Below are positions 6,101 through 47,344 of a DNA stretch of 64,000 bases, in pieces. Position 1 is the first letter of the stretch. Each line of letters starts with the position of its first letter. Under the pieces are notes generated by a model, which made no database searches, was not told the origin of the DNA, and worked only from the letters and a program-made list of their open reading frames with translations. Position numbers and translations under genes: made by a program. The stretch comes from an uncultured Alphaproteobacteria bacterium (GTDB lineage: Bacteria; Pseudomonadota; Alphaproteobacteria; Rhizobiales; Hyphomicrobiaceae), in assembly GCA_963746315.1 (NCBI GenBank), contig CAVVAR010000002.1, positions 32,320 to 96,319 on the forward strand. The letters run 5' to 3'.

Positions 6101-6364
6101 CTTGGGCGTGAGACGGCTTCCATGGAAGCTTGACCGTTACCAATTGCCGAGGTCGGCCGGACACTTGTCGAGCTTGCCAGCCGTCGGTGATCCCTTGTCC
6201 GCTTTCGAACATCCCGGAGCTTGAAACCATCCCGGGCAGGACCAGCGCCGCCGCGTTCAAACAGGCACACTCTCCAGGTTCTTCATCCGTATTGTGCACG
6301 AGCGATAATTGGACCACCTTCGCGTACTGCTTCTTGTCCCTCCTTGACCTGAGGATACGTCGTC

Positions 6365-7195: not shown

Positions 7196-7377
7196 ATCCG
7201 AATTGGACCTCGAGACACTTGGTGGCGGCGGCGATACACCGCCGCCGACCATGTCTGAAATCCGATGGACAGCGTCAGCGATCAGATGTCGACCTTCTTG
7301 GCGATCTCGATGCCGGGATGCGATGCTTTCACCTGGGAATGTCTCGCGCTTATGCTGATCGATGCGACAGCGTAAGC

Positions 7378-30821: not shown

Positions 30822-31961
30822 CTAGGCCGCGCGGGACGGCAACTCGACGGTGCCGGTGCCGAGGACGGAGAGCTCGTCGTCCTGGTTGACCGCCTGCTGC
30901 TCGATGTCGACGAGGTGGCGGCCGTTCTCGACGCGCTTGCCTGTCACCTTGCCGTCGATGAAGAGGAGATCGCCTTCCGGGTTGTGGCGGCGGATCTTGC
31001 AGGTGGCGCGGCGCAGGAAGCCGGCGTCGCCCATCCAGTTGGTCATGTGGTGGGTGAGCCAGGAGCAGCGCTCGGGGCCGTAGTCGTAGGCGCCGGGTGC
31101 GCCGACCATGTGCGCGAACTCGGGCTCCCAATGCACGCGCTCGGGGCAATCCGGGATGCCGAAGCGGTTCGGGATGCCGAGGCCCTTGTGGCGGTGGATC
31201 ATCTTCCAGGCAATCTTGTTGGCGCGGATGTAGAGGCCGCCCCAGCCTTGCGCGAAAGCGATGAAACCGGTCACGGTCATCGGCCCCTTGGCCATGCGGG
31301 GCAGGGCCTCGCCGACGGCGACATCCTCGAAATAGCGCGGTGTGGCGCCGCGGATCTCTTCCTTGGCGTAGAGGCTATAGACCTTCTCCAGCTCGTCAGG
31401 CGTATAGACGCGCGGCGGCTTAGCCTTGAGCTCCTTGTATTTGGTGCCTTCCTCGCGGGCGTGATCGCGATCGGTGCGGAAGCACCAGCTGTCGGCCTCG
31501 GCGACGAGCTCGTTCCGCTGATTGTAGAATTTGACATGATAGATTTGTTGTACGGCGCGGCCGGCGAAGCGCGTCTGGTGCTCGACCAGCTCCTTAAGGT
31601 GGGCCTCGGTGCGCAGCTCGTCGTTGCGCAGCAATGGCAAATGCCAAGTCCAATCGGCACCGGCCCACATGGCGTGGACGCCGGGGAGGCCGCCGACGTA
31701 GCCCGAGATGATGCGGTCGCAGGCGAAGAGGAACGAGGGCGGGGCGACGATGGTGCCGAAGCGGGTTTTGGCGGCGTAGTCGGGATCGCACCAGAGCGGG
31801 TTGTCGTCGCCGATTCCATGGGCGTAGTGGCGGATATTGTCGCGCGTCGCCTCGTGGCACCAGGGCTCGAGCGTGTCGGTGATCGGCACGCCGATGCGGC
31901 GCCGGAGCTCGCCGAGGGTCTCGTCGGTGATCTTGGGGAAAAGCCGTCCGGCTTCGGTCAT
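30822..31961 (-). CDS. Double hot-dog MaoC-like acyl dehydratase / enoyl-CoA hydratase
   Basis: The C-terminal 380 aa of ORF 30822..32252 start at MTEAGRLFPKITDETL. The N-terminal MaoC_dehydrat_N-like part is HYAHGIGDDNPLWCDPDYA...VAPPSF. A C-terminal hot-dog part follows. Confidence 0.7.
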   Translation of the reverse strand: MTEAGRLFPKITDETLGELRRRIGVPITDTLEPWCHEATRDNIRHYAHGIGDDNPLWCDPDYAAKTRFGTIVAPPSFLFACDRIISGYVGGLPGVHAMWAGADWTWHLPLLRNDELRTEAHLKELVEHQTRFAGRAVQQIYHVKFYNQRNELVAEADSWCFRTDRDHAREEGTKYKELKAKPPRVYTPDELEKVYSLYAKEEIRGATPRYFEDVAVGEALPRMAKGPMTVTGFIAFAQGWGGLYIRANKIAWKMIHRHKGLGIPNRFGIPDCPERVHWEPEFAHMVGAPGAYDYGPERCSWLTHHMTNWMGDAGFLRRATCKIRRHNPEGDLLFIDGKVTGKRVENGRHLVDIEQQAVNQDDELSVLGTGTVELPSRAA

Positions 31962-31971
31962 GTGGATGTCC

Positions 31972-33603
31972 TCATGGCTGCTGGTTGGCGCTCGGCGCGG
32001 TCTCGCGCTCGCGCAGGATCTTGCGGTTGACCTTGCCGGCCGGCGTCTTCGGCAGCTCGGCGACGAAAGCGATCTGGCGGGGGTACTCGTGGGCGCTGAG
32101 GCGACTGCGCACGTTCTCCTGGATCTCGCGGACGAAGGCGTCGTCGCCCAGGCGCGGGGAAACCACGAAGGCCTTGACGATTTGTCCACGGGTCGGGTCC
32201 GGGACGCCGATGGCGGCGGCCTCGCGCACGTCGGGGTGCTTGAGCATGGCATCCTCGATCTCGACGGCGCTCATGGTCCAACCGGCCGAGATGATGACGT
32301 CGTCGGCGCGGCCGCCGTGATAGAAATACCCGTCCTCGTCGGTCCATCCGAGATCCTTGCTGGGGATCCATTTATCGCGACGCCAGATCTTGATCTCGCC
32401 GATGGCTTTCGGCGGCAGTGGCTGGCCGTCCGGCCCTTGCACCTCGACGCGACCGCCGGGCAGAGGCTTGCCAAGCGCACCCGCGCGCACAGGGAGATCC
32501 GCAGCGCCCGGATAGCTGGCAAGGACGACACCGACCTCGGTGGTGCCGTAGAAGCTGGCGGGCAGGCTGCCGAATGTCCGCTCGGCGAAAGCGGCGGTCT
32601 CGCTGTCCATCGGCTCGCCGGTGAAGGTGAGCTTCTTCAGGTTAAAGGTGTAGCGCGCGGCGGTGCCGGCGTTGCGCATCATGCGGTAGTGGGTGGCGGC
32701 GGCCGAGAGATTGGTGACGCGGAAGTCCTGGAGGGCGCGCATCAGGCGATCGGCGTCGAAGCGGCCGGAATAGGCGCCGATGGTGAGGCCGAGGGCGAGC
32801 GGGGCCAGCGTGCCGTGCCAGAGGCCATGGCCCCAGGCGGGCGACGAGGGACAGAAGAACTCCTCGCCGGGCCTGACGCCGGTGCCGTAGAGCGCCGCGA
32901 TCATGACGACGACGATGGCGCGGTGGGTGTGTCGGACGGCCTCGGGCAATTCACGGGTGGTGCCGGAGGTATATTGGAAGCAGGCGAGGTCGTCGGATAT
33001 CGAGTCCCAGGCGAACTCCGCCGGAAAGCGCTCCAGGTCAGCGAGGAATGCATCGTCGGCGATGACGACGTCGAGGCCCGTCATGCCCTCGGCGATGGGG
33101 GCCTTCTCGGGGTTGGTCAGCAGCACCTTCGGCGTGCAGTCGTCGATGCGGAGGCGCAGGCCGTCGGGTCCGAACAGCGTGAAGAGCGGGACGGCGATGG
33201 CGCCCGCCTTGATCGCGCCGAACAGCCCCGCGTAGAAGGCGAGGGACGGCTCCAGCATGATGGCGACGCGGTCGCCCGGCTGAACGCCACGAGATCTCAA
33301 GAAATGGGCGACGCGCGAAGAGAGCACCTTCAGGCGCTCGAACGTGATGTGCTCGTCGTGGCCGTCGGCGAAGGCGATGCGGACGGCGACGCGATCCGGC
33401 GACATGGCGTGGCGGTCGATGCACTCGTGGGCCAGATTCAATCGCTCGCGCGAACCGTCGAACAGCTCCCATAGCTTCGGGATCGAGAAATGACGCTGGG
33501 CGTCCGCGTAGGTCGAATACTCGGTCAGCTTCACCGGCCCGGTCCGTGATTGCGCGTCTCGGCTCGCCGATCCGACATCGACAGCCTTGTTGTCCAGGTA
33601 CAA
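31972..33603 (-). CDS. AMP-dependent acyl-CoA synthetase/ligase
   Basis: The AMP-binding motif is FQYTSGTTRELPEAV. Also present are YGTTE, WIPSKDLGWTDEDGYFYHGGRADDVI and PKTPAGKVNRKILR. The start is probably internal (for example GTG at 33534), because the longest ORF abuts the divergent IclR ORF. Confidence 0.85.
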   Translation of the reverse strand: MYLDNKAVDVGSASRDAQSRTGPVKLTEYSTYADAQRHFSIPKLWELFDGSRERLNLAHECIDRHAMSPDRVAVRIAFADGHDEHITFERLKVLSSRVAHFLRSRGVQPGDRVAIMLEPSLAFYAGLFGAIKAGAIAVPLFTLFGPDGLRLRIDDCTPKVLLTNPEKAPIAEGMTGLDVVIADDAFLADLERFPAEFAWDSISDDLACFQYTSGTTRELPEAVRHTHRAIVVVMIAALYGTGVRPGEEFFCPSSPAWGHGLWHGTLAPLALGLTIGAYSGRFDADRLMRALQDFRVTNLSAAATHYRMMRNAGTAARYTFNLKKLTFTGEPMDSETAAFAERTFGSLPASFYGTTEVGVVLASYPGAADLPVRAGALGKPLPGGRVEVQGPDGQPLPPKAIGEIKIWRRDKWIPSKDLGWTDEDGYFYHGGRADDVIISAGWTMSAVEIEDAMLKHPDVREAAAIGVPDPTRGQIVKAFVVSPRLGDDAFVREIQENVRSRLSAHEYPRQIAFVAELPKTPAGKVNRKILRERETAPSANQQP

Positions 33604-33609
33604 TAATTA

Positions 33610-34515
33610 TTGTATCCGTGCAACATGGCGAAGCGAGCGACAGTTCTCGATCGAGGCGACAGCGTGGACGGGCATGCTAGCGCCCCGGTCATGGCGGATG
33701 CCTCGGCGCGCGCCGTGCCGGCAGTGACGCGTGGCATCGCGATCCTGCGGTTGCTGGCCCGCAGCAGCGAGCCCCTGGGTGTGAACGCGATAGCGCGCGA
33801 GCTCGAGATCGTACCGAGCACGTGCCTCCATATCCTGCGTGCGCTGGTGGCCGAGGAGATGGTCGCGGTCGACCCGGCGACCAAGCGGTATGTGCTGGAC
33901 GCGGGCGTGCTGACGCTGGCGAGAAGCGCGTTGCGCCAGGACAGTTTCGCGCAGATCGCACAGCCGGAGCTGGACAGCTTGTCGGCGTTGCTTGGCGTGA
34001 CGGCGATTGGAGTCCGGGTGATCGGGCTGCAGCATATGATCGTGGTCGCAATCTCCCGGTCAGAGGTTGCATTCCGGCTGCATGTCGACGTGGGCAGCCG
34101 GTTCCCCGCCTTGATCAGCGCGACGGGACGCTGCCTGGCAGCTTTCGGCCAGCATTCCGCAGGCGATATCGAGCGCGCGTTCCGGGCTCTAAGGTGGGAT
34201 GCTGCGCCGAGCTACGAGGACTGGCGGGCCGAGGTCGCCTCGACCCGGCGCGCGGGGTTCGGCGTCGACAAGGGCAACTACATCCGCGGCGTGACGATCG
34301 TTGCGGCGCCGGTCATCGGCATCGAGGGCTGGATGACGCACGCGCTGGTGACGGTGGGTCTCAGCGATCAGATGCGCCGACCTGGGCCAAGCGAGGTTGG
34401 TGCCGGGTTGCGTGCGGCGGCAGCGCGGGTTTCCGCGCAGCTCGGCGGCTTCGACGGGCTGACAGGTGCGGCTGTTGCGCCAGCGGGTCCGAATGGCAAC
34501 AATGAGCGCAAGTAG
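33610..34515 (+). CDS. IclR family transcriptional regulator
   Basis: The HTH is VTRGIAILRLLARSSEPLGVNAIARELEIVPSTCLHILRALVAEEMV. A C-terminal effector domain follows. The start is uncertain (33610, 33625 or 33691). Confidence 0.8.
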   Translation: MYPCNMAKRATVLDRGDSVDGHASAPVMADASARAVPAVTRGIAILRLLARSSEPLGVNAIARELEIVPSTCLHILRALVAEEMVAVDPATKRYVLDAGVLTLARSALRQDSFAQIAQPELDSLSALLGVTAIGVRVIGLQHMIVVAISRSEVAFRLHVDVGSRFPALISATGRCLAAFGQHSAGDIERAFRALRWDAAPSYEDWRAEVASTRRAGFGVDKGNYIRGVTIVAAPVIGIEGWMTHALVTVGLSDQMRRPGPSEVGAGLRAAAARVSAQLGGFDGLTGAAVAPAGPNGNNERK

Positions 34516-34537
34516 CATTCACACAGGGAGCAGCCGC

Positions 34538-35695
34538 ATGCCGGGAGCACTCGAGGGTCTCGTCGTTCTCGATCTGACGAGCCTGTTGTCTGGGCCCTAC
34601 GCGGCGATGATGCTCGCCGATCACGGTGCCGACGTCATCAAGGTCGAGCGTAAGGGCAAGGGCGACGATGCGCGCCGGATGCCGCCGTTCGTCGAGGGCG
34701 AGAGCGCGCCATTCATGATCTGGAACCGCAACAAGCGGTCGGTGGAGCTGGATTTCAAGGACGAGGGGGACCGCGCGCGGCTGCTCGACATGGCCGACGG
34801 CGCGGACATCGTCATCGAGAACTTCCGGCCCGGAACGATGGACCGGCTGGGACTCGGCTACGAGGTGTTGAAGGCGCGCAATCCGCGGCTGATCTATGCG
34901 GCGATCTCCGGCTTCGGGCAGACGGGGCCCTATGCGAGCCGGGGCGGCTTCGATCTGATGACGCAGGGCATGTCGGGCTTGATGAGCACATGCGGGCCGG
35001 AGGAAGGGCCCCCGCACCGGCTGCCGATCGCAATCTCGGACGTGGCCGCGGGCATGTTTCTCGCGTTCGGCATTCTGGCCGCCGTCGAGGCGCGGCATCG
35101 GACTGGGCGCGGGCAGATCGTCGAGACCTCGCTGTTGGAGGCGGCAACCTCGTTCGGCGTCTATGAGGCGGCGCACTATTCGGCGCTCGGCACACGGCCG
35201 GAGCGGATCGGGCAGGCGCATCGGGGCAGCGCGCCGTATCAGTGCATCGCGGCGTCGGACGGCTACATGACGATCGGTGCGGCGCAGCAGAATTTCTGGG
35301 AGCGGTTCGCGGACATCATCGGGCGGCCAGAGCTCAAGGACGATCCGCGCTTCCGCACAAACGCCGACCGCGTCGCCAACAACACCGCGCTGATCGAGAT
35401 GATCGAGGCCGTGATGCGCACGAAGCCCAAGGCGCACTGGCTTGCAGCGATGGAGGCGGCAGGAATTCCGTGCGGCCCGGTGCTCAACTACGACGAGGTT
35501 TTCACCGATCCGCACATTCTGGCGCGCGACATGTACGTGCCGACCGAGCATGCCCGCGCTGGCACGTTCAATACGCTGGGCGTGACGGTGAAGCTCTCGG
35601 AGACGCCGGGTGCCGTCAGGTCGGCGGCGCCGACGCTCGGCCAGCACAACGACGAGATCCTGCCCGGCGGATTTACTGCCGCGCGCAAAGCCTGA
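34538..35695 (+). CDS. CaiB/BaiF family (class III) CoA-transferase
   Basis: LEGLVVLDLTSLLSGPYAAMMLADHGADVIKVE...RNKRSVELDFK...ADIVIENFRPGTMDRLGLGYE. AGGGAG lies 7 nt before the ATG at 34538. Confidence 0.9.
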   Translation: MPGALEGLVVLDLTSLLSGPYAAMMLADHGADVIKVERKGKGDDARRMPPFVEGESAPFMIWNRNKRSVELDFKDEGDRARLLDMADGADIVIENFRPGTMDRLGLGYEVLKARNPRLIYAAISGFGQTGPYASRGGFDLMTQGMSGLMSTCGPEEGPPHRLPIAISDVAAGMFLAFGILAAVEARHRTGRGQIVETSLLEAATSFGVYEAAHYSALGTRPERIGQAHRGSAPYQCIAASDGYMTIGAAQQNFWERFADIIGRPELKDDPRFRTNADRVANNTALIEMIEAVMRTKPKAHWLAAMEAAGIPCGPVLNYDEVFTDPHILARDMYVPTEHARAGTFNTLGVTVKLSETPGAVRSAAPTLGQHNDEILPGGFTAARKA

Positions 35696-35746
35696 CGGGC
35701 GCCTTCTGCCCGAGATTCGATCCAGACCAACCGACGGAGCAACGAG

Positions 35747-36055
35747 ATGTCCGCAACCTATGCCGTGGTATGGCCGCGCAGCGCGCGGTCGGTCGAGGTC
35801 AAGGCGCTCGCGCCGCGGCTTGCCTCGCTCGAGGGGAAGACGGTCGCGTTCCTCTGGGACTACCTGTTCCGGGGCGACGAGATCTGGCCGACGCTCTCGG
35901 AGGAGCTCGGGCGGCGTTATCCGGGCATGCGGTTCATCGGATGGGAGGAGTTCGGCTCGACCCACGGTGACGAGGAGCACAAGGTGCTGGCGGAGTTGCC
36001 GGCTAAGCTCAAGTCCTTGAAGGTGGACGCTGTCGTCTCCGGCATGGGCTGTTGA
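35747..36055 (+). CDS. N-terminal part of a candidate selenoprotein; the TGA at 36053 lies inside a C-U-G-S-C motif (UGSC / GrdB-like)
   Basis: The ORF ends ...LKVDAVVSGMGC-TGA. The same frame continues GSCTPAVLRVSAIAEAAGVP with protein-like composition. The rest of the domain continues in ORF 36093.. after a frame change near 36113. Confidence 0.6.
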   Translation: MSATYAVVWPRSARSVEVKALAPRLASLEGKTVAFLWDYLFRGDEIWPTLSEELGRRYPGMRFIGWEEFGSTHGDEEHKVLAELPAKLKSLKVDAVVSGMGC

Positions 36056-36091
36056 GGCTCATGCACCCCCGCCGTGTTGCGGGTCAGCGCA
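36053..36091 (+). promoter_or_regulatory. Candidate bacterial SECIS hairpin following the in-frame UGA
   Basis: The upper stem CCCGC (36068-36072) / GCGGG (36079-36083) carries the loop CGUGUU and starts 12 nt after the UGA. A possible lower stem is UGC (36062-36064) / GCA (36089-36091). Confidence 0.4.
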
Positions 36092-36092
36092 A

Positions 36093-37478
36093 TTGCCGAA
36101 GCTGCCGGAGTTCCCGACCTCGTCGCTCTGCTGCGAGGGGTTCCTCGGACAAGCCAAAACGACATCGGTCGGGCTCGGATACCCGAACCTGCCACTCGCC
36201 ACCGTGCCCGGTCACGTCGACGTGCAGACGGAAGCCGATCTCAGGAAGAACGTGCTCGAGGTGACCGCCGATCTGGTCGTCGGAAACCTCACGGGCGAGG
36301 CCCCGGCAGTGGCCGTGACACGCGATCCCGATCCGAAGGAGATCGTGCTCGAAGGATCATTCGAGGACGTCAATCGTCTGTTCCTCGAGAACGGCTGGTC
36401 GGACGGGCTGCCGATCGTGCCGCCGACGAAGGAGAAGATCGCGGAGTTCCTGGCGTTCACCGATCGCGATCCCGACGCGGTGATCGGGACTTTGCTGCCG
36501 GATAATCGCAAGGCGACGGTGTGGAACGTGGCGGTCAATGGCGTGATGGCCGGGTGCCGGCCGGAGTACATGCCGATCCTCGTCGCGGCCGTCGAGGCGA
36601 TGGCCGATCCGGGCTATGGCGTCGAGCATTCGGGCAACACGCCGGGGGCCGACACGCTGCTCATTCTCAATGGTCCGCTGATCAAGCAGCTGGGCTTCAA
36701 CACCGAGCAGGGCGCGTTACGCGACGGGTTCCAGCCGAATACGTCGATCGGGCGGTTCTGGCGGCTCTATCAGCGCAACGTCGCCGGATTCATGCTGCAC
36801 CAGAACGACAAGGGCACGTTCGGCAACACGTGGCGGGTGGTGCTGGCCGAGAACGAGGACAGCCTTGCGAAAATGGGCTGGCCGAGCATCGCCGCCGACA
36901 TGGGGCATGCCGGCGCGAAGGACGGCGCCATCACCATCTCGCGCTTTACCGGGAGCAATGCGGTCGTCTCGGTGTTCGGCAATTCAGCCGAGAAGCTGGT
37001 GCCGTATCTGGGACAGGCCATCGTTACGCACACGACGTGGGAGGTGATCTTCACGGTGGGGCTTGCGACGGGGACGTACCGGCCGCTGCTGCTGCTCTCG
37101 CCGCTGATCGCCGAGGCAATCGCGCGGTCGGGCTGGAGCAAGGCCGATCTCCAACGGGCTCTGTTCGAGCAGGCGCGCATGCCGGCGCACCAGTTCGAGA
37201 AGTACCTCTGGGGCTGGACCAACCTCGTTCCAGGCAAGCGGACGCTCAACGACTGGGTGCGGCTCGGCAAGGCACCGAAGGTGTTTGCAGGAAAGGATCC
37301 CGATCGGATGGTTCCAGTGGTCACGGAGCCCGAGCACATCATGATCGCAGTGGCGGGCGATCCGATGCGCTCGAACTGCCACCTGCTGGTGCACAACGGC
37401 ATGCTCGGTTTCCCGACCACGAAACCGATCATATTGCCGGAGGGCTGGCGGCAGAAGCTCCGGAAGGCGCAGGCCTAG
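36093..37478 (+). CDS. Uncharacterised protein: first ~65 codons continue the UGSC/GrdB-like domain, the remainder is paralog 1 of an unnamed family
   Basis: The N-terminus SSLCCEGFLGQAKTTSVGLGYPNLPLATVPGHVDVQ continues the selenoprotein module. From about 36290 the family signature is GWSDGLPIVPPTKEKIAEFLAFTDRDP...NGVMAGCRPEYMPILVAAVEAMADP...LNGPL. No stop codon separates the two parts. Confidence 0.6.
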   Translation: MPKLPEFPTSSLCCEGFLGQAKTTSVGLGYPNLPLATVPGHVDVQTEADLRKNVLEVTADLVVGNLTGEAPAVAVTRDPDPKEIVLEGSFEDVNRLFLENGWSDGLPIVPPTKEKIAEFLAFTDRDPDAVIGTLLPDNRKATVWNVAVNGVMAGCRPEYMPILVAAVEAMADPGYGVEHSGNTPGADTLLILNGPLIKQLGFNTEQGALRDGFQPNTSIGRFWRLYQRNVAGFMLHQNDKGTFGNTWRVVLAENEDSLAKMGWPSIAADMGHAGAKDGAITISRFTGSNAVVSVFGNSAEKLVPYLGQAIVTHTTWEVIFTVGLATGTYRPLLLLSPLIAEAIARSGWSKADLQRALFEQARMPAHQFEKYLWGWTNLVPGKRTLNDWVRLGKAPKVFAGKDPDRMVPVVTEPEHIMIAVAGDPMRSNCHLLVHNGMLGFPTTKPIILPEGWRQKLRKAQA

Positions 37479-37482
37479 GCGC

Positions 37483-38718
37483 ATGGCGGTTGGCAGCGAC
37501 AGCCTCTGGCTCGTGATCCCGGCTGGGGAGACAGCGGCCGGAGGCTGGATCGACGACACGCTCCGGGAGCGTGCGGCGGAAAGCGGCCTCCTTTCGCGGA
37601 CGCCGCTCGCGGGGCAGTTTCCGCGACAGCGGGTGGAGGTGGTGGCGGGGCCGGACAGTGGGGCAGTCGCGCAACGGCTCTATCGCGCGCGCGGGTGGAC
37701 GGACGGGCTGCCGATCGTGCCGCCGACGACGGCGCGTGTGCGCGACATGCTGGCGTTCACGGACAGGAAGCCGAGCGACGCCCTGGGCGAGGTCGAGCCG
37801 CTGAAGGGGATAGCCACGATCGAGAAGGTCGCGAGCAATGCCGTGATGGCTGGTTGCCGGGCTGACTATTTTCCGGTCGTGCTGGCAGCGGTCGAAGCCG
37901 TGCTCGATCCGGCCTTCAATCTGCGCGGCCTCCAGACGACGGACGAGAACGCGGCGCCGCTGATCGTCGTCAACGGGCCGCTGACGCGGGCGCTCGACAT
38001 CAACGGCTCGTTCGGGGCGCTTGGACCGGGCTGGCGGGCCAATGCCGCGATCGGTCGTGCGGTGCGGCTGGTGCTCAACAATCTCGGCGGCGGGTGGCCC
38101 GGGTCGGTGTCGTTTGCGGGCCTAGGGCATGCCGGGCGCTACACGATGTGCATCGCCGAGAACGAGGTGCAGAGCCCGTGGGAGCTGCTGCACGTCGAGC
38201 AGGGCCTCGCGAAAGAGACCAGCGCGGTGACGTTGTTCCGGGCCGAGACGGCGATCAACGTGACGGGAGGGCTGGCGGAGATCGCGAGCGTGATGGGCTC
38301 GGCGGCGTCGGCCTTCCAGATCCTCTGGAACGGCATCGCCACCGTGCTGCTGTCGCCCGCCACGGCCAATGCACTCGCACGTGATGGGATGTCGAAGAAC
38401 GACGTGGCAGCCTGGCTGTGGAGAGAGGGGCGCTGGCCGGCGGATCAGTGGCGCGCGTCGTGGCTCTATCGCACGGTCGAATCGCCCGAGCGGTGGGCGC
38501 CCTGGGTGCATGCGTCGGCCGCGGACGGCGCAGTGGCACCGACGGCGCGACCGGAGGACATCACCGTCGTCGTGGCCGGCGGCGATATCCCGATCGCGCA
38601 ACATGTCTATTGCCCGTCGTGGGGTTTCCCGCCGGCACGCGTGGCGCGGGCGATCGCGTTGCCACTAGACTGGGAGAGGCTCCATGCCGAAGCACGCGAG
38701 GGAGAGAACGCAGCATGA
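37483..38718 (+). CDS. Uncharacterised protein, paralog 2 of the same unnamed family
   Basis: GWTDGLPIVPPTTARVRDMLAFTDRKP...NAVMAGCRADYFPVVLAAVEAVLDP...VNGPL is collinear with the upstream protein. It starts 5 nt after the upstream stop codon. Confidence 0.7.
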   Translation: MAVGSDSLWLVIPAGETAAGGWIDDTLRERAAESGLLSRTPLAGQFPRQRVEVVAGPDSGAVAQRLYRARGWTDGLPIVPPTTARVRDMLAFTDRKPSDALGEVEPLKGIATIEKVASNAVMAGCRADYFPVVLAAVEAVLDPAFNLRGLQTTDENAAPLIVVNGPLTRALDINGSFGALGPGWRANAAIGRAVRLVLNNLGGGWPGSVSFAGLGHAGRYTMCIAENEVQSPWELLHVEQGLAKETSAVTLFRAETAINVTGGLAEIASVMGSAASAFQILWNGIATVLLSPATANALARDGMSKNDVAAWLWREGRWPADQWRASWLYRTVESPERWAPWVHASAADGAVAPTARPEDITVVVAGGDIPIAQHVYCPSWGFPPARVARAIALPLDWERLHAEAREGENAA

Positions 38719-39632
38719 GCGGTAAGTGCGACGTGGCGGTGGTCGGCGGTGGGATCACCGGGCTCACGGCCGCGCATCATGCGGCACTGGAGGGCGCCTC
38801 GGTGGTGCATTACGTCGGGTCCGGTGTTCCGGGCGGCCTCGTCGCCAACGTCGGTGAGCTCGAGGGATTTCCGGCGGCGGGTAGCGTGGCCGCGCTCGAC
38901 GTGGCGCTGCGGCTCACGGAGGAGAACGAGCGGCTCGGTGTCGAGGTGGTGCCCGAGGATGTGGCGCGGCTCGAGGCGACCGGATCGCTGTGGCGGCTCG
39001 CGACGGAGGCGGGTACGCGCGAGGCGCGAAGCGTGGTGGCGGCCACCGGCGCGCGGCTTCGGATGATCGACGTGCCGGGAGCGGCGCGGCTCACCGACAA
39101 GGGCCTGTCGCAATGCGCATGGTGCAACGGCAGCCTTTATCGCGGGGCCGAGGTCGTGGTGATCGGCGGCGGCGATAGCGCCCTTCAGGAGGCGCTCCAT
39201 CTCGCGAAATATGCATCGCTGGTGACGATCGTGACACGAGGGGAGACGCTGAAGGCGCGGCGCTCGCTGGTCGACCGGGCTGCCGACAACGAGCGCATCG
39301 CGTTCCGGTGGGAGACGGATGTCGTCGAGGTGCTGGGCGGCGACAGCGTGACGGGGATCAACGTACGCGAGCGGACCGCGGGAGAGGTGGAGCACATCGG
39401 CTGCGCCGGTGTCTTCGTCTATATCGGGCTCGCGGCCAACGCCGACTGGCTCGCGGGGCAGATCGATCGCGACAGTGACGGGTGTGTGCTGACGGATGCG
39501 AGCCTTGCGGCGTCGGCAGCGGGAGTGTTCGCGGCCGGTGCCGTGCGCCGGGGCTATGGCGGGCGCCTGACACATGCCGTCGGTGAGGCAACGACGGCCG
39601 CGCTCGCTGCGGCGCGCCATGCGGCGGCTTGA
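38715..39632 (+). CDS. Thioredoxin-reductase-like FAD/NAD(P)H pyridine nucleotide-disulfide oxidoreductase
   Basis: The FAD motif is DVAVVGGGITGLTAA. The redox dithiol is CAWC (LSQCAWCNGSLY; compare CATC in TrxB). The NADPH motif is VVVIGGGDSALQEA, and GVFAAGAV is also present. The ATGA start overlaps the upstream stop codon. Confidence 0.8.
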   Translation: MSGKCDVAVVGGGITGLTAAHHAALEGASVVHYVGSGVPGGLVANVGELEGFPAAGSVAALDVALRLTEENERLGVEVVPEDVARLEATGSLWRLATEAGTREARSVVAATGARLRMIDVPGAARLTDKGLSQCAWCNGSLYRGAEVVVIGGGDSALQEALHLAKYASLVTIVTRGETLKARRSLVDRAADNERIAFRWETDVVEVLGGDSVTGINVRERTAGEVEHIGCAGVFVYIGLAANADWLAGQIDRDSDGCVLTDASLAASAAGVFAAGAVRRGYGGRLTHAVGEATTAALAAARHAAA

Positions 39633-39838
39633 TAACGGCTGCGAAATCGTGAATGGCCGTCTACGGCTCTTCACTAAAAATCAACCAATCTCATTCAGGC
39701 TCGACGGTCGCGAGAGGGCTGCCCGGGGATCACTTGCCCCGCTCCAGCCCAAATCGCGTCGCAATCCGGCCGTCGCCCACCCGTATCCACAGAAGTCGGG
39801 GAGCGACCGGATGCGATCGGACCGGGGTAGAGCGTGTC

Positions 39839-40873
39839 ATGCGGCACAAGACAATGATCGGAGCGCTGCTCGTCGTGGGCGCAGGAGTCCAGGGGGCAAC
39901 TGCGGCACCACTCGGCGACGAGGAGCTGAAGTCCCTGGTCGGCGGCAAGACCGTCACGATCGAGACGCCTCTCGGATTGCCCATCACTGTCAATTACGGT
40001 GCAAACGGCATGATGACCGGCACCACAGGTACGGCGCTCGGCGTCTATCTCGGGGCCGTGAAGGACCGTGGACGCTGGCAGATCAAAGGCGGAAAGCTTT
40101 GCCAGAAGTGGTTCAAGTGGCTGTCGGGTGAGCCGACGTGCCTGACGCTACGCCAGGAGGGCGCCAAAATCGCCTGGAGAAGTGACGAAGGCCAGACCGG
40201 AATGGCGATGATCGAGTCGGGGCCGCCGGCTTTCGACGGCGTGACCGCGTCCGGTCTCGGGCTTCCGCCACCAGCTCCCCCGCCGAAAAAATCCTCTGAC
40301 GTGGACCGTGTCGATGGGACCGGCTCGAAGCCTGTCACATCCGTTCCGCGGGCCAGCGTCGTGCCGGCGAGGCCGGCAGCAGCGAGCCGTGAGTCTGACG
40401 AGAAAAGCGTGCGTCCAGTGGCTCGGCCGGCACTGGTCGAAGCGCCGCGTGAGGTGCCGCGCCCGATGCGCGCGGTCGCGGACGGGGCCCGGCCACAATT
40501 CGCGCTGGCGAGCCTGGCGCCGGTCGGACCGGCTCGGCCAACTCAGCCTGTGCCGGAGGCGCCGTCATCGCAGGTCAGCTCTCCACCCAGCGACGAGCCG
40601 CCGGCCGATCCGCTGTCCATGCGCAGTGCCGGGGATGCCGCGGCGATCGCGGCGCTCGAGTATCGCTGGTGCCTCTCCAACGCATTCGCAAAAGGCCCCG
40701 CGCTGCCGACCTACGCGACGATCGCTGCTCCCGAGCTGGTGAGCGGGCCCAGTCTGCTGGCGGTGGCGCAGGAGCAGGCCTACGACGGCGAGCTGCCGTT
40801 GCACGAGGCCTCATGTCTCACGGAAGAGCCAGCGATCGCACTGTTCGGCAACCTCGGTCCGGCCGAGCACTGA
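39839..40873 (+). CDS. Secreted hypothetical protein with a Pro/Ala-rich C-terminal half
   Basis: The signal peptide is MRHKTMIGALLVVGAGVQGATAAP. A globular N-domain (GRWQIKGGKLCQKWFKW) is followed by a low-complexity P/A/S-rich region. Confidence 0.55.
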   Translation: MRHKTMIGALLVVGAGVQGATAAPLGDEELKSLVGGKTVTIETPLGLPITVNYGANGMMTGTTGTALGVYLGAVKDRGRWQIKGGKLCQKWFKWLSGEPTCLTLRQEGAKIAWRSDEGQTGMAMIESGPPAFDGVTASGLGLPPPAPPPKKSSDVDRVDGTGSKPVTSVPRASVVPARPAAASRESDEKSVRPVARPALVEAPREVPRPMRAVADGARPQFALASLAPVGPARPTQPVPEAPSSQVSSPPSDEPPADPLSMRSAGDAAAIAALEYRWCLSNAFAKGPALPTYATIAAPELVSGPSLLAVAQEQAYDGELPLHEASCLTEEPAIALFGNLGPAEH

Positions 40874-41021: not shown

Positions 41022-42182
41022 ATGGATCGCGCGTTGGGCGTTCCCGTCATTCGGCGGATACTTAGCTACATCGACGCCAACAGCACGGCCATGGCCGAGC
41101 GGCCGTGGAAGAACGATGTCACCGCCTATTACTCGCCGGATCATCTGAAGGCGGAGACAGACGTCCTCTTCCGGCGTCATCCGCTGCTGATGGGTTTGTC
41201 GTGCGACTGGCCGAAGCCCGGCGACTGGCGCACCGACGATCTGGCCGGTGTGCCGATCCTGATCGCACGAGGCGGCGACGGTGTGTTGCGGGCATTTCTC
41301 AACGTCTGCCGACATCGCGGGGCCAAGGTTGCACAAGGTTGCGGCCACGCCAGCGTGTTCTCATGCCCCTATCACGCTTGGACATATGGCCTGGACGGCC
41401 GACTGCGCGGCATTCCCGACGAGCAAGCGTTCGAAGGCGTGAGGGCGGAGCGACCGGGCTTGACCGCGCTGCCGCTGGCCGAGTGGAACGGCCTCGTGTG
41501 GGTGATGCCGACGCCGGCGGCGGACGGCGTGACGAGCCTCGACATCGAGCCCTGGCTCGGCGGTCTCGGACGGGAGCTCGCGTCCTACGGGGCGCAGACC
41601 TATCACCTCTACGAGAAGCGTCTCGTTCCCGAGACGATGAACTGGAAGGTGCTCGTCGACACGTTCCTCGAAAGCTACCATATCGGCTTCCTGCACAAGG
41701 ACAGCCTGACGTCGATCCTGATCGGCAACGTGGCGGACTTCGAGGCCTTCGGAGCCAATGGACGCATCGTTTTCCCGCGCCGAAAGATCGAGCGGTTGCG
41801 AGGGATGCCCGAGAGCGAATGGGACCTGATGTGGAACTCGGCCACGGTCTACTGCCTGTTCCCGAATACGCTGTTCGTGACGCAGGGTGATCATCTCGAG
41901 ATTCATCGCGTTTTTCCGGCAGAGGGCCGGCCCGACCGGGCGGTCATGGAGACGTCGTTCTATATTCCAAAGCCGGTCGCCAATGACGACGAGGAGCGGC
42001 ACTGGAAGGCCAACCTCGACCTCCTGATGCAAGTGGTGCTCGGCGAGGACTTCCCCACCGGACGCACGATGCAGATCGGCTTTACGTCGGGAGCGCAGGA
42101 TCACACGATCCTCGGCCGCAACGAGCCGGCGATGATCCACTATCACCAGTCGCTGAGGCGGGCGCTCGGATTGCAGGTGTGA
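41022..42182 (+). CDS. Rieske [2Fe-2S] aromatic ring-hydroxylating oxygenase, alpha subunit-like
   Basis: The Rieske motif is CRHRGAKV...CPYHAWTY. The mononuclear iron motif is ESYHIGFLH. Confidence 0.85.
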   Translation: MDRALGVPVIRRILSYIDANSTAMAERPWKNDVTAYYSPDHLKAETDVLFRRHPLLMGLSCDWPKPGDWRTDDLAGVPILIARGGDGVLRAFLNVCRHRGAKVAQGCGHASVFSCPYHAWTYGLDGRLRGIPDEQAFEGVRAERPGLTALPLAEWNGLVWVMPTPAADGVTSLDIEPWLGGLGRELASYGAQTYHLYEKRLVPETMNWKVLVDTFLESYHIGFLHKDSLTSILIGNVADFEAFGANGRIVFPRRKIERLRGMPESEWDLMWNSATVYCLFPNTLFVTQGDHLEIHRVFPAEGRPDRAVMETSFYIPKPVANDDEERHWKANLDLLMQVVLGEDFPTGRTMQIGFTSGAQDHTILGRNEPAMIHYHQSLRRALGLQV

Positions 42183-42529
42183 TCTCGAGCGGGCGGCTTG
42201 ACAATAAATGTCGGCCACTGCGAAACTACCCAGAGAAAAGTTCCAGGCCGTCGGTCATCTGGTCGCTTGCCGTAAGGCAAATCCGGAAGCCGATTTGGGG
42301 TGATGTGATCGTGACCGGGGCGGTCGCGCTCGAAGCATTCGCCGCATGAGCCGACAACAAAAACGATGAAACCCGGGTCAACCGGTCCGTTTCGGGAGGA
42401 AGGCACCTTGAGGCTCGTCAACAGCCTGCGCGAGGCTTCGCGCGCGGCCGGTTCATCACGCCAAATCTCTGCTGCTCGGCTCTCTTCTGCACGGTGCCGG
42501 CCCGCGGGCCTGACAGGCGGCGCCCGTTC

Positions 42530-43339
42530 ATGAGCGAGGCGACGGCGGGAGCCAATACCTCGTCCCACATCGACCTCGCGGTCGACGGTGTGGCCAAGCG
42601 CTTCGGCGGCGTGGTCGCCTCGGCGGGCGTGTCGATGGACGTGCCGAAAGGCAAGATCGTCTCGGTGATCGGCCCGAACGGTGCGGGCAAGACCTCTCTG
42701 ATCAACATGATCTCGGGGTTCTACAAGCCCGATACCGGCCGAGTGGTGTTCCAAGGGCGCGATATCACCGCGCTCAAGCCGTACGAGATCGCAGCGCTGG
42801 GCGTGGCGCGCACGTTCCAGAACATCGCGCTGTTCTCGGGCCTGACGGTGCTCGACAATCTCATGCTCGGACGGCACGTCCGCATGCGCTCGAGCGTGCT
42901 GGCGAGCCTCGTCTACTGGGGGCCGGCGCAGCGCGAGGAGATCAAGAACCGCGAGGTCTGCGAGGAGCTGATCGAGTTTCTCAAGCTCGAGGACCTGCGC
43001 AAGCAACAGACCGCTGCACTCGCTTATGGCTTGCGCAAGCGCGTCGAGCTCGGCCGGGCGCTGGCGCTCGAGCCGAAGCTGCTGCTGCTCGACGAGCCGA
43101 TGGGCGGCATGAACCAGGAAGAAAAGGAGGACATGGCCCGCTACATCCTCGACGTGAACGGGGAACGCGGCGTCACCGTCGTCCTGATCGAGCATGACAT
43201 GGGCGTCGTGATGGATATCTCCGATCATGTCGTGGTGCTCGACCGTGGCCGCAAGATCGCCGAGGGCACGCCGGCCGAGGTGCAACGCGACCCGGCCGTG
43301 ATCGCGGCCTATCTCGGCACCAAGCGGGAGAGCGAATGA
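42530..43339 (+). CDS. Branched-chain amino acid-type ABC transporter ATP-binding protein (LivG-like)
   Basis: Walker A is GPNGAGKTS. The signature and Walker B region is LLLLDEP.GGM. The LivG-type C-terminus is PAEVQRDPAVIAAYLG. Confidence 0.9.
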   Translation: MSEATAGANTSSHIDLAVDGVAKRFGGVVASAGVSMDVPKGKIVSVIGPNGAGKTSLINMISGFYKPDTGRVVFQGRDITALKPYEIAALGVARTFQNIALFSGLTVLDNLMLGRHVRMRSSVLASLVYWGPAQREEIKNREVCEELIEFLKLEDLRKQQTAALAYGLRKRVELGRALALEPKLLLLDEPMGGMNQEEKEDMARYILDVNGERGVTVVLIEHDMGVVMDISDHVVVLDRGRKIAEGTPAEVQRDPAVIAAYLGTKRESE

Positions 43340-45276
43340 TGAGCCTCTTGGAAACGGCGGAGACCTCGACGCTCCCCAAGCTCGTCGTGCGCAATGCCCG
43401 CCACTTCGGCTCCGAGCCCGCGATGCGCGAGAAAGACCGCGGCATCTGGCAGACCATGTCGTGGAGTGATGCGGCGGCATTCCTTCGGGACTTGTCGCTC
43501 GGCCTCGGCACGCTGGGGTTCGGGCGTGACGACAAGCTGTCGGTGGTCGGCGACAACAGACCGGCGCTCTATCTGGCTCAGCTTGCCGCGCAGGCGGCGG
43601 GCGGCGTGGCGATACCCGTCTACCAGGACGCGATCGCGACCGAGCTCGTCTACGTGCTGAACCACGCCGAGGTCTCGGTGATCGTCGCCGAGGACCAAGA
43701 GCAGGTCGACAAGATCCTGTCGCTGCGGGACGAACTGCCCAACCTGAAGTGGATCGTCTACGAGGACCCGCGCGGGCTTGCCGGATCGGACGAGCCGCTC
43801 CTGATGTCGCTCGAGGACGTGCTCGCGGCAGGGCGGAAGGTCGAAGGCGGAGCCGCCAAGTTCGAGCGCGAGCTGGCCCTCGGTGGCGCCGACGACGTAG
43901 CGATGATTGCCTACACGTCGGGCACGACGGGGCGGCCGAAGGGTGCGCTGCTGACGCACCGCAATATGGTCGGCACAGCTGAGAACTACATCAAGGGCGA
44001 GCGGGTGGATCGTGGCGACAACTGGCTCGCCTTCCTGCCGATGGCCTGGGTAGGCGATGCGATGTACTCGCTGGCCGTCGCGCTGGTGGCCGGTGCCACT
44101 GTCAACTGTCCGGAAAGCCCGGAGACGGTGCAGCGGGACCTACGCGAGCTGGGGCCGACCATCGTGCTGGCGCCGCCGCGGATCTGGGAGACGCTGCTGA
44201 CGCAAGTGCAGGTGCGTGCGGGGGATTCGTCGTTCCTCAAGCGGCGCACGTTCGAGTATTTCATGAAGCTCGCGGAGAAGCGCGAGCTGCTGCTGCAGGA
44301 CGGCAAGCCGGTGCCACTCGGGACGCGGCTCGGCTATGCGCTCGGCGAGTGGCTGGTCTATGGGCCGGTTCGCGATCTGCTCGGGTTCCGGCTGACGCGC
44401 TGGGCGGTCACGGGTGGGGCACCACTCGGTCCGGACACATTCCGCTTCTTCCGCTCGATCGGCATCAACCTGAAACAAGTTTACGGGCAGACCGAAGCGT
44501 CGGCGCTCGTCGCCTTTCAGCGCGACGGCAACGTCGATCCAAACACGGTCGGCGAGCCGGTGCCGGGGCTCGAGTTCCGGATCGCGGAGAATGGCGAGCT
44601 GCAGGTGAAGGGGCCGGGCGTGTTCATCGGCTACTACAAGCAGGATGACGTCACGGCCGAGACCAAGACCGCAGATGGCTGGCTCAGGACGGGCGACGCG
44701 GCGGTGATCTCGCCGCAAGGGCAGCTGGCGATCATCGACCGTGCGAAGGACGTCGGCCGGCTTGCCGACGGGACGCCGTTTGCGCCGCAGTTCATCGAGA
44801 ACAAGCTCAAGTTCTCGCCATTCATCCGCGAGGCGGTGGCATTCGGTGATGGCATGGACTTCGTCGCCGCGATGATCGCCATCGACATGGAGACGGTGGG
44901 TAACTGGGCCGAGCGCAAAGGGCTCGCCTATACGAGCTTCATGGATCTGGCGCGCAAGCCCGAGGTGGCCGGCCTGATCGTGCAGGAGGCGGCGAAAATC
45001 AACGCGACGCTCCCGGAAGAGACGCGCGTGCGGCGCGTGCTGCTGCTGAACAAGGAGCTCGACGCCGACGATAACGAGGTGACGCGGACCCGGAAGGTGC
45101 GTCGCAGCTACGTGGCGGAGAAATACAAGCCCGTGATCGACGCCTTCTACGGCGGCAAGGACAGCGCCGCAGTGTCGATCGAAATCACCTTCGAGGATGG
45201 GCGCAAGTCGACGCTCGACGCCACGATCGCCATACACGACGTGCCGCCAGCCGGCTCGGCGAAACAGGCGGCTTGA
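43336..45276 (+). CDS. AMP-binding long-chain acyl-CoA ligase embedded in the ABC operon
   Basis: IAYTSGTTGRPKGALLTHRN, YGQTE, GWLRTGDA...IIDRAKD. The ATGA start overlaps the LivG-like stop codon. Confidence 0.85.
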   Translation: MMSLLETAETSTLPKLVVRNARHFGSEPAMREKDRGIWQTMSWSDAAAFLRDLSLGLGTLGFGRDDKLSVVGDNRPALYLAQLAAQAAGGVAIPVYQDAIATELVYVLNHAEVSVIVAEDQEQVDKILSLRDELPNLKWIVYEDPRGLAGSDEPLLMSLEDVLAAGRKVEGGAAKFERELALGGADDVAMIAYTSGTTGRPKGALLTHRNMVGTAENYIKGERVDRGDNWLAFLPMAWVGDAMYSLAVALVAGATVNCPESPETVQRDLRELGPTIVLAPPRIWETLLTQVQVRAGDSSFLKRRTFEYFMKLAEKRELLLQDGKPVPLGTRLGYALGEWLVYGPVRDLLGFRLTRWAVTGGAPLGPDTFRFFRSIGINLKQVYGQTEASALVAFQRDGNVDPNTVGEPVPGLEFRIAENGELQVKGPGVFIGYYKQDDVTAETKTADGWLRTGDAAVISPQGQLAIIDRAKDVGRLADGTPFAPQFIENKLKFSPFIREAVAFGDGMDFVAAMIAIDMETVGNWAERKGLAYTSFMDLARKPEVAGLIVQEAAKINATLPEETRVRRVLLLNKELDADDNEVTRTRKVRRSYVAEKYKPVIDAFYGGKDSAAVSIEITFEDGRKSTLDATIAIHDVPPAGSAKQAA

Positions 45277-45286
45277 GGAGACGGGA

Positions 45287-46180
45287 ATGCAAGAAGAGCT
45301 TGAGTTCCTGTTCGCCCTGTTGATGAGCGGCTTATCGATCGGCATGATGTACTCGCTGATCGCGCTCGGCTTCGTGCTCGTCTACAAGGCGACCGACGCC
45401 ATCAATTTCGCGCAGGGCGAGTTCGTCATGCTGGCGGGCTTCATGTGCGCGACGGTGCTGACCTACAATTTTCCCCTCTGGCTCGCGATCCTGATCGCGA
45501 TCGGGCTCATGGTGGGATTCAGCTTTGCCCTGGAGAGGGTGGTGCTGCGCCCCCTTCTCGGGCGACCGGTGGTGGCCGTGATCATGGCGACGATCGGCCT
45601 GGCGGCCATTCTGCGCGGATTGCCGCCGATCACGATCGGCGCGCAAACCAAGACCATTCCGCTGCCGATCGGCGACGAGCCGGTGCAATTCTTCTGGGCG
45701 TCGCTGCCGCCGATCCAGGTGCTCGGCATCGCGGTGTCGGCGCTGTGCCTCGCCGGGTTCACGTGGTTCTTCATGAAGAGCCGGATGGGTGTCGCGATGC
45801 GCGCCGTCGCCGACAACCAGCAGGTCGCCATGGCCATGGGTATCAACGTCGAGCGCTACTTCGCGATCGCGTGGGCCATGGCGGGAATCGTCGCAGCGCT
45901 CGGCGGCATCATCTGGGGATCGATGCTCGGCGTCGACACGCAGCTGGCGCTGGTCGGCCTCAAGGTGTTTCCCGTGGTCATCCTCGGCGGGCTGGATTCG
46001 ATCATCGGCGCGGTGGTCGGCGGTCTCATCATCGGCGTCGTCGAGAGTATCGCGGCTGGGTATCTCGACCCGGTCGTCGGCGGCGGCACCAAGGATTTCG
46101 CGCCTTACGTGATCATGATCATCGCGTTGATGTTCAAGCCGTACGGCTTATTCGGCAAGCGCAAGATCGAGCGCATCTGA
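45287..46180 (+). CDS. Branched-chain amino acid-type ABC permease (LivH-like)
   Basis: LLMSGLSIGMMYSLIALGFVLVYKATDAINFAQGEF. GAGGAG lies upstream of the ATG at 45287. Confidence 0.9.
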   Translation: MQEELEFLFALLMSGLSIGMMYSLIALGFVLVYKATDAINFAQGEFVMLAGFMCATVLTYNFPLWLAILIAIGLMVGFSFALERVVLRPLLGRPVVAVIMATIGLAAILRGLPPITIGAQTKTIPLPIGDEPVQFFWASLPPIQVLGIAVSALCLAGFTWFFMKSRMGVAMRAVADNQQVAMAMGINVERYFAIAWAMAGIVAALGGIIWGSMLGVDTQLALVGLKVFPVVILGGLDSIIGAVVGGLIIGVVESIAAGYLDPVVGGGTKDFAPYVIMIIALMFKPYGLFGKRKIERI

Positions 46181-46210
46181 GGTCCATCCGACCAGAGGGA
46201 AGAGCAGCCC

Positions 46211-47278: not shown

Positions 47279-47344
47279 GGGGGCCGGCAAGGCGTAACGA
47301 CAATAACAAGGCGTAACGACAACAAAGTGTGGAGGAGGTAACGC

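Follow-up and report, generated by a model that had tools for sequence, protein, structure and literature searches.

A selenocysteine-containing UGSC-Unk1 fusion gene and its probable redox partners beside coenzyme A genes in an uncultured Hyphomicrobiaceae bacterium

Introduction

The UGSC selenoprotein family dates from 2005-2008 and was described as a generic thiol-oxidoreductase-like protein (PMC2398784); it is still listed without a function in reviews of 2022 and 2026 (PMC9312934, PMC13188914). Its members (PF24696, NF041046) are characterised by a U-G-S-C motif whose selenocysteine (Sec, U) is encoded by TGA, by a hairpin downstream of this codon and by Sec forms that outnumber the Cys forms, and a fusion of UGSC with a conserved domain having one conserved Cys, Unknown_1, was published in 2008 (PMC2398784). 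Here we describe a gene with all these features at positions 30,822 to 39,632 of a stretch of 64,000 nucleotides (hereafter the window) from an uncultured alphaproteobacterium of the Hyphomicrobiaceae (GCA_963746315.1, contig CAVVAR010000002.1). The second domain of its product is called Unk1 below, its identity with the published Unknown_1 being unconfirmed. The gene is followed by a stand-alone paralog of this domain (Unk1′) and by a gene for a low-Mr thioredoxin-reductase-like (TrxR-like) flavoprotein, and it lies in a regulon with genes for coenzyme A (CoA) metabolism; neither these operon partners nor the CoA link are found in the searched literature, and the window copy differs from the family also in being frameshifted. 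On balance, we lean towards interpreting the three genes as a selenol/thiol redox cassette operating within a CoA-carboxylate regulon. The original prediction, made from the letters of the sequence, had proposed a selenium-dependent reductase pathway acting on a CoA-activated substrate, an interpretation that our analysis supports in part.

The locus can be compared also with other described systems. As in glycine reductase (GrdA/B/C/D/E) and D-proline reductase (PrdA/B), Sec stands beside Cys, a TrxR-type enzyme is available as electron supply, and reductive chemistry on small carboxylates may be envisaged; however, none of the domains that define those enzymes, nor their pyruvoyl proenzyme, is present here, the catalytic partner would be Unk1/Unk1′, and activation, if there is any, would be through a CoA thioester and not an imine. 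Mammalian thioredoxin reductase has a C-terminal Gly-Cys-Sec-Gly redox centre. The same tetrapeptide G-C-U-G occurs in our protein, but it is internal, is accompanied by an additional invariant Cys at +3 and belongs to an unrelated fold. Finally, the flavoprotein gene adjoins its presumed client as ahpF adjoins ahpC, and the redox CxxC of its product is at the position found in TrxB, but the presumed client is not a thioredoxin-fold protein and the HRR motif, which in TrxB binds the NADPH phosphate, is replaced by TRG.

Results

The selenocysteine codon and its hairpin

The codon at the U position of the G-C-U-G-S-C motif is TGA in 84 of 84 loci, which span Alpha-, Beta- and Gammaproteobacteria, Acidimicrobiia, Methylomirabilota, Nitrospinota, Verrucomicrobiota and Acidobacteriota, and the protein sequence is conserved on both sides of it. 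Cys replaces U at the same position in homologs of 578-607 aa. Furthermore, a Cys directly precedes U in 79 of the 82 distinct sequences; both this adjacent C-U arrangement and U-x-x-C are typical of selenenylsulfide redox centres.

Downstream of the TGA, codons +5 to +9 (CCC GCC GTG TTG CGG) encode a hairpin resembling a selenocysteine insertion sequence (SECIS). Among the 107 conserved degenerate columns of the whole gene, the four that are most frozen in codon choice are +5, +6, +7 and +9, where the frequency of the top codon reaches 0.975-1.0 compared with a median of 0.62. At this offset, divergent subfamilies form perfect stems of different sequence (UCGAGCA-GUG-UGCUCGA and CGUGCA-GUU-UGCACG). 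A search of the window with Rfam at gathering thresholds detected no SECIS and no other RNA family, and the folding energy of the hairpin is no better than that of shuffled sequences (z -0.07), the sequence being GC-rich. The folding energy is therefore uninformative, and the case for the hairpin rests on the comparative codon data. With TGA in every locus and synonymous sites frozen over the hairpin, the assignment of Sec, already proposed in the original prediction, is solid.

A single gene encodes the UGSC and Unk1 domains

The Sec gene (FRAMESHIFTED in the window) consists of a UGSC domain (PF24696) fused to the unannotated Unk1 domain. In the window, the frame that opens at 35747 is protein-like until ~36115, and protein-like sequence resumes in another frame, within the open reading frame (ORF) 36093-37478. 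Joining the two frames yields a protein of 577 aa, whose first ~180 residues match PF24696 (E 4e-26 to 3e-29; 92.5-102.9 bits for the frame-repaired translation, the gathering score being 25). The UGSC equivalog NF041046, a model built for proteins of ~147 aa, gives 39.7 bits and remains under its cut-off of 125 bits, which suggests that the fused subfamily is divergent from this stand-alone model. The Cys-containing homologs mentioned above are contiguous proteins, and in a 93%-identical relative (L001, 9674-11404) both halves lie in one frame across the TGA. Therefore, what had been taken for a candidate Sec protein and a first paralog is one gene, of a family that was already catalogued, and the tail of the plus-strand unit comprises three genes, not four.

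The fusion is widespread. More than 3700 database proteins match it, and a scan of one genome per species finds it in at least 595 genomes, mostly of aerobic Proteobacteria, Acidimicrobiia and similar groups. Cultured strains that carry it include Vineibacter terrae CC-CFT640 (L078), which has the full cassette, and Xanthobacter aminoxidans ATCC BAA-299 (L071). Most of the database proteins have 465-468 aa instead of ~577, because gene callers restart after the TGA. Indeed, public gene calls are nearly all split at this codon into an N-terminal piece of 102 aa and a piece of 465-468 aa (P0001-P0120).

Conservation of the cassette

Of 53 well-flanked loci, 29 have an Unk1 paralog and 28 a TrxR-like gene at a distance of up to 3 kb from the fusion gene, and 38 have one or both; in the subfamily with at least 60% identity, the one closest to the window, the paralog is found in 26 and the TrxR-like gene in 19 of 30 loci. 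The junctions in the window are tight, with 4 nt between the stop codon of the fusion and the ATG of the paralog, and an ATGA overlap between the paralog stop and the TrxR-like start. The original prediction had described the last four genes of the unit as translationally coupled or nearly so; the genes involved are three. The conserved unit is a cassette of UGSC-Unk1, Unk1 paralog and TrxR-like gene. Co-conservation of the neighbourhood, a check named in the original prediction, holds for these genes but, in UGSC-anchored loci, not for the CoA genes (MaoC in 5 of 82 loci, any CoA gene in 9 of 37).

The TrxR-like protein scores 225.2 bits with TIGR01292, under the cut-off of 343.45, and hence falls outside the TrxB equivalog. 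It carries the GGGxxG and GGGDSA motifs for FAD and NAD(P)H binding, and its CAWC aligns with the redox CxxC (CAVC) of the TrxRs in the PDB; a redox CxxC is kept in at least 30 of the 36 TrxR-like neighbours. A simpler arrangement, in which a TrxR-like gene precedes UGSC-Unk1 and the paralog is missing, occurs in L038, L055, L057, L058, L059, L064, L069, L074 and L083. The order TrxR-like > UGSC-Unk1 is that of more distant loci, often with selD or selA alongside. Overall, a SelA or SelD gene adjoins the fusion gene in ~9 loci. The adjacency, seen in most of the subgroup, looks as if UGSC-Unk1 were the main selenoprotein client of these genomes.

A divergent glycine/sarcosine/betaine or D-proline reductase could be evoked by analogy alone, as a TrxR-type enzyme adjoins a protein whose Sec stands in a U-x-x-C motif. 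We give practically no credence to this explanation. The proteins of the locus do not match GRDB (GrdB/PrdB, PF07355), the Sec protein not even at E up to 10; the seven proteins scanned between 30822 and 39632 contain no domain of the GrdE/PrdA pyruvoyl proenzyme (Gly_reductase), of GrdA or of GrdC/D; the catalytic partner is an unrelated domain; and the hosts are mostly aerobic Proteobacteria, Acidimicrobiia and similar groups. A Grd/Prd identity is excluded because of this domain content, in agreement with the earlier statement that the system is not a canonical one.

The Unk1 domain and structure models

A profile search of 1.84 billion representatives places Unk1 in a superfamily of 6911 clusters (50% identity), of which 2004 reach E<=1e-30. 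The superfamily includes stand-alone proteins of ~350 aa, UGSC fusions and tandem Unk1-Unk1 proteins (~710-740 aa). Neither the fused Unk1 nor the paralog has a match in Pfam or NCBIfam, and searching the PDB by sequence returned only chance matches. Both window copies share the conserved core W-x-D-G-L-P-x-x-P-P-T ... N-x-V-M-A-G-C ... N-G-P ... I-G-R, including the nearly invariant Cys of N-x-V-M-A-G-C. Among 58 long Unk1 representatives, UGSC is present in 43 and the catalytic chain of ferredoxin-thioredoxin reductase (FTR, PF02943), fused to the C-terminus of Unk1, in 2; no enzymatic domain other than these was found in this set. The UGSC domain can stand on either side, as both UGSC-Unk1 and Unk1-UGSC exist. 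The FTR domain, which is absent from the window, would play in those rare proteins the role that the TrxR-like gene has here. Such fusions give independent support to a thiol/selenol (disulfide/selenenylsulfide) electron relay, as the original prediction had conceived it.

An anaerobe-type locus (L085, 5452-9619; P0333) encodes a UGSC(Sec)-Unk1-FTR catalytic domain fusion, in which the conserved Cys of Unk1 is Ala. This gene is followed by those of a fumarate-reductase-like flavoprotein and a 2Fe-2S protein, with UbiD, an old-yellow-enzyme homolog and two family III CoA-transferases nearby.

Two proteins were modelled with AlphaFold2, namely the Cys-form fusion P0045, which is 58% identical to the window protein, and the window paralog. 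Both models are confident, with pLDDT (predicted local distance difference test) values of 88.7 and 87.6, respectively, and a pTM (predicted template modelling score) of 0.90 in each case. Foldseek retrieved nothing at E<1e-3 with either model; class I fumarate hydratases head both lists (E ~1e-3, TM ~0.2), a non-significant result to be regarded as a lead only, and are followed by PrpD-like and Toblerone-fold enzymes. For the UGSC domain of P0045, the model shows a doubly wound alpha/beta fold resembling flavodoxin, in which a strand and a helix flank the motif. Foldseek ranks NQO1, azoreductase, flavodoxin and SIS domains highest as its neighbours, and the top 50 include no thioredoxin-fold protein. 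This fold prediction contradicts the "likely Trx-like fold" of the 2008 paper (PMC2398784).

These structural leads bear on a different explanation, in which Unk1 would be a non-redox hydratase, isomerase or lyase acting on a di-/tricarboxylate or a CoA ester; Sec would serve as nucleophile or acid-base group, and the TrxR-like protein would simply keep it reduced. Besides the fumarate hydratases, PrpD-like and Toblerone-fold enzymes in the Foldseek lists, this explanation draws on loci without a TrxR-like gene (L122, L129 and the Unk1-UGSC type) and on neighbours that are often carboxylate enzymes (TctC, PrpD, MR_MLE, MaoC). However, the structural matches are under significance and show a high root-mean-square deviation, the presence of a TrxR-like gene within 3 kb in 28 of 53 loci and the FTR fusion argue for a stoichiometric electron input, and the U-x-x-C and C-U arrangements are typical of selenenylsulfide redox centres. 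Thus, we consider a non-redox Unk1 quite unlikely.

The association with CoA genes

In the 82 loci anchored on UGSC, we count a MaoC gene in 5, a family III CoA-transferase in 13 and an AMP-binding protein in 12; any of the three is present in 9 of the 37 loci having at least 8 kb on both sides. The reciprocal test was performed on MaoC-anchored loci from 80 metagenome contigs. Orthologs of the window MaoC (74-93% identity) occur on >577 metagenome contigs, almost always directly after a gene for an AMP-forming acyl-CoA synthetase (ACS). In the anchored loci, ACS precedes MaoC almost everywhere, an IclR gene is present in 22 and a CoA-transferase in 21, while a UGSC/Unk1 selenoprotein is found in 13-14, corresponding to 12 of the 34 loci with at least 5 kb of upstream flank.

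At least four arrangements are represented: the window type, a same-strand type, a reverse-order divergent type and a convergent one (L089). In the same-strand type (L122, L129), the order is ACS>MaoC>UGSC-Unk1>Unk1′ with a gap of 66 nt; the reverse-order fusion Unk1-UGSC(Sec) is divergent from ACS>MaoC in ~10 loci of one lineage. In addition, a CoA-transferase>MaoC>UGSC-Unk1 operon exists in Betaproteobacteria (L045, L077), and a MaoC/ACS/IclR block lies near the fusion gene in a metagenome-assembled genome of the Acidobacteria (L055). With the two CoA-transferases of L085 as a further case, the associations that arose independently number roughly six. As UGSC/Unk1 is found in 12 of 34 MaoC loci but is absent at others, the CoA link is recurrent and facultative; it is real but not universal. 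The idea of a CoA-bound substrate contained in the original prediction is consequently weak when viewed from UGSC and gains support when viewed from MaoC.

The permuted form (L092, L094-L096, L098, L099, L103, L104, L110) lies ~2.4-6.5 kb upstream of MaoC on the opposite strand. It has Unk1 first, a UGSC motif that reads G-I-G-D-U-G-S-C-S-S-S-S and a 7-bp hairpin of its own after the TGA; an IlvD/Edd-type dehydratase and a SIS-domain gene are found near these loci.

The pairing of a family III CoA-transferase with a double hot-dog hydratase recalls the CoA modules of the itaconate, mesaconate and glutarate type. Here, however, the equivalog cut-offs are missed widely, a gene of the citramalyl-CoA-lyase type is lacking, a PDB search at 1e-5 returned no relative of the hydratase, and the constant partner is an AMP-forming ligase.

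The same counts can be used to argue that the CoA genes are mere neighbours in this lineage and that the cassette works autonomously in redox metabolism or detoxification, for instance as a reductase of peroxides, electrophiles, disulfides or an oxidised cofactor. Indeed, 77 of the 82 fusion-type loci are without MaoC and their flanks differ widely among taxa, the cassette moves about in compact form and in some genomes has selA or selD next to it, as would be expected of the principal Sec client, and the literature views UGSC as a generic thiol-oxidoreductase-like protein. This possibility appears unlikely to us, given that 12 of 34 MaoC-anchored loci carry UGSC/Unk1 in several arrangements, with both fusion orders and with same-strand gaps of 66 nt, and that in the window the CoA-transferase and the cassette belong to one IclR-headed operon.

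A frameshift in the window copy

The UGSC frame is not intact in the window, a fact that the original prediction had missed. One extra nucleotide, 60 nt after the TGA, gives GTTCCCGACC where the relatives have GTCCCC-ACC and ACCCCG-ACC. It is the sole uncompensated indel in ~17 kb of synteny with two relatives (30.8-47.5 kb, ~84% DNA identity), and the deposited record has as its gene call the 461-aa downstream ORF alone. The window copy could be either a very recent pseudogene or the product of an assembly error.

If the insertion is real, the selenoprotein gene would be a recent pseudogene and the system would be dead in this genome, which would have no selenium-dependent pathway. The insertion stands in the deposited record, where what is called is the 461-aa remnant; it is uncompensated and cuts the UGSC domain in the middle of its fold. 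We regard this outcome as possible, though somewhat improbable: no other such indel is found in ~17 kb, the 461 codons after it have remained intact, with 93% identity to the relatives, the insertion sits in a C-run, a typical site of assembly errors, and a +1 slip of tRNA-Pro could, speculatively, compensate for it.

Regarding this last point, the extra base creates a quadruplet CCC-G on which such a slip would restore the conserved V-P-T-S-S, as read, with due speculation, from the sequence. We consider a programmed +1 frameshift at CCC-G unlikely, since none of the relatives has the insertion; a low-level rescue by slippage is conceivable.

Gene map of the locus

The listing of ORFs together with profile searches confirmed the two divergent units between 30822 and 39632, with all the genes that the original prediction had assigned to them (Table 1).

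Table 1. Positions of the genes and sequence elements of the locus in the window.
Feature	Position	Strand	Evidence
MaoC/FAS1_DH-type double hot-dog (de)hydratase, 379 aa	30822-31961	-	PF13452 E 1.3e-17, PF01575 E 8.7e-6
AMP-forming acyl-CoA synthetase (ACS), ~520 aa	31972-~33534	-	PF00501 + PF13193
AT-rich 16-bp perfect palindrome TACAATAATTATTGTA	33599-33614	.	91-bp divergent intergenic region, ACS/IclR
IclR-family regulator	~33625-34515	+	PF09339 + PF01614
Family III CoA-transferase, start 34493 or 34538	34493-35695	+	PF02515 E 4.2e-134, profile positions 1-366/366
UGSC-Unknown_1 fusion selenoprotein gene, ~577 aa if repaired, frame disrupted	35747-37478	+	PF24696; 93%-identity relatives of same architecture
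In-frame TGA, Sec codon, in motif G-C-U-G-S-C (36047-36064)	36053-36055	+	TGA in 84/84 loci
SECIS-like hairpin CCCGC-CGUGUU-GCGGG, starting 12-13 nt after UGA	36067-36084	+	RNAalifold consensus
1-nt insertion (CCC-G run), shifting the frame inside the UGSC domain	36113-36116	+	alignment with L001, L002
Stand-alone Unknown_1 paralog (Unk1′), 411 aa	37483-38718	+	34% identity to fused Unk1, E 1e-46
Low-Mr TrxR-like flavoprotein with CAWC	38715-39632	+	match to PDB TrxRs at E 5e-54

All top NCBIfam matches of the ACS are under cut-off, and its closest PDB entries are short/medium-chain ligases. The CoA-transferase is nearest to the succinate-glutarate, succinyl-CoA:mesaconate and SUGCT types, below every equivalog cut-off. 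Its gene either overlaps that of the IclR regulator or begins ~22 nt after it, depending on the start chosen, and its stop codon is 51 nt from the UGSC start. The palindrome TACAATAATTATTGTA occurs once in the window (65% GC), whereas shuffles lead to an expectation of 0. It is kept at the same place in the two closest relatives, L001 and L005, the latter being the closest genome locus (94% identical), and it overlaps the sole sigma-70-like match. It is a plausible candidate for the IclR operator; as an operator shared by the two units, it would speak for the CoA link.

Directly 3′ of the TrxR-like gene, an ORF of 406 aa (39653-40873) has a proline-rich C-terminal half and no Pfam match; it is kept in L001 (343 aa) and elsewhere does not belong to the cassette. 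Synteny with L001 and L005 extends downstream over 41022-47600, where a Rieske ring-hydroxylating alpha subunit (41022-42182) is encoded together with an ABC ATPase, an AMP-binding protein of 646 aa and ABC permeases of the branched-chain type. Several marine Alphaproteobacteria (L021, L022, L030, L037) likewise have Rieske genes, located immediately upstream of the cassette. The window looks chromosomal (Der GTPase, SufB, two-component genes), and scanning it revealed no tRNA, no tRNA-Sec, no selA and no selD. Far from the cassette, an ORF of 801 aa (6130-8535) has a Malate/L-lactate dehydrogenase (Ldh_2) domain confined to its C-terminal 340 residues, the N-terminal 450 residues being without a Pfam match; an over-extended ORF or a fusion is possible.

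Discussion

The explanation that we somewhat favour, a three-gene selenol/thiol redox cassette in a CoA-carboxylate regulon, can be described as a chain of putative steps. The TrxR-like flavoprotein would accept electrons from NAD(P)H and pass them via FAD to its CAWC dithiol, which in turn would reduce the selenenylsulfide centre C-U-G-S-C of the UGSC domain. This domain would then pass the reducing equivalents, or offer the selenolate itself as a nucleophile, to a catalytic site formed by the fused Unk1 and the paralog Unk1′, each contributing one nearly invariant Cys (N-x-V-M-A-G-C). Since the cassette appears to share one IclR-controlled divergent regulon with a CoA-transferase, a CoA ligase and a double hot-dog (de)hydratase, its most likely role here would be to carry out a reductive reaction while a small carboxylic acid is degraded via its CoA thioester. 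Our analysis shows the gene content, the Sec codon with its hairpin, the conservation of the cassette, the domain fusions and the frequencies of the neighbouring genes; which way the electrons run, whether Unk1 and Unk1′ form a heterodimer, whether the chemistry is reductive and what kind of substrate is used are inferred.

Several observations weigh against this explanation. The window copy is frameshifted, and the literature searched reports no biochemical data for any UGSC/Unk1 family member, neither a reductase activity nor a substrate. Seen from UGSC, the CoA genes are mostly absent and their frequency might be near chance for large proteobacterial genomes; the other neighbours of the cassette vary, including TctC (26 loci), SDR, luciferase-like, TauD, Rieske, hydantoinase and peptide-type ABC genes. 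On the MaoC side, ~10 of the loci share one lineage, so that the independent events are reduced to roughly six, and a MaoC ortholog with 86% identity (L091) has no UGSC gene within 10 kb. Finally, the unfused or reversed UGSC/Unk1 arrangements have no TrxR-like gene nearby, and in one Unk1-FTR fusion the conserved Cys is replaced by Ala.

A more far-reaching proposal is that UGSC/Unk1 constitutes an unrecognised class of Sec-dependent reductases, with a new catalytic fold, that acts on carboxylates in the form of CoA thioesters. In such enzymes, the selenolate would attack a carbon that the thioester activates, in either a Michael acceptor or an alpha-substituted acyl-CoA, the neighbouring Cys would resolve the Se-C adduct to give a selenenylsulfide, and a TrxR-like or FTR-like module would recycle it. 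We consider this proposal a long shot; if true, it would provide an aerobic, CoA-based counterpart of the logic of glycine and proline reductases.

With respect to the literature, the UGSC family and the UGSC/Unknown_1 fusion of 2008 were known. In the literature searched, we found neither the cassette with its paralog and dedicated TrxR-like gene nor the FTR fusions, the existence of both fusion orders or the ACS-MaoC association. For annotation, the consequence is a systematic error, in that a selenoprotein of ~577 aa is N-terminally truncated at the TGA in most database entries. For the biology of the family, an orphan selenoprotein becomes a testable enzyme system, whose partner domain is obligate, for which a heterodimeric partner and an electron donor of two alternative types are likely, and which has a recurrent context of ACS, MaoC hydratase, family III CoA-transferase and IclR regulator; among its carriers are the cultured species Vineibacter terrae and Xanthobacter aminoxidans.

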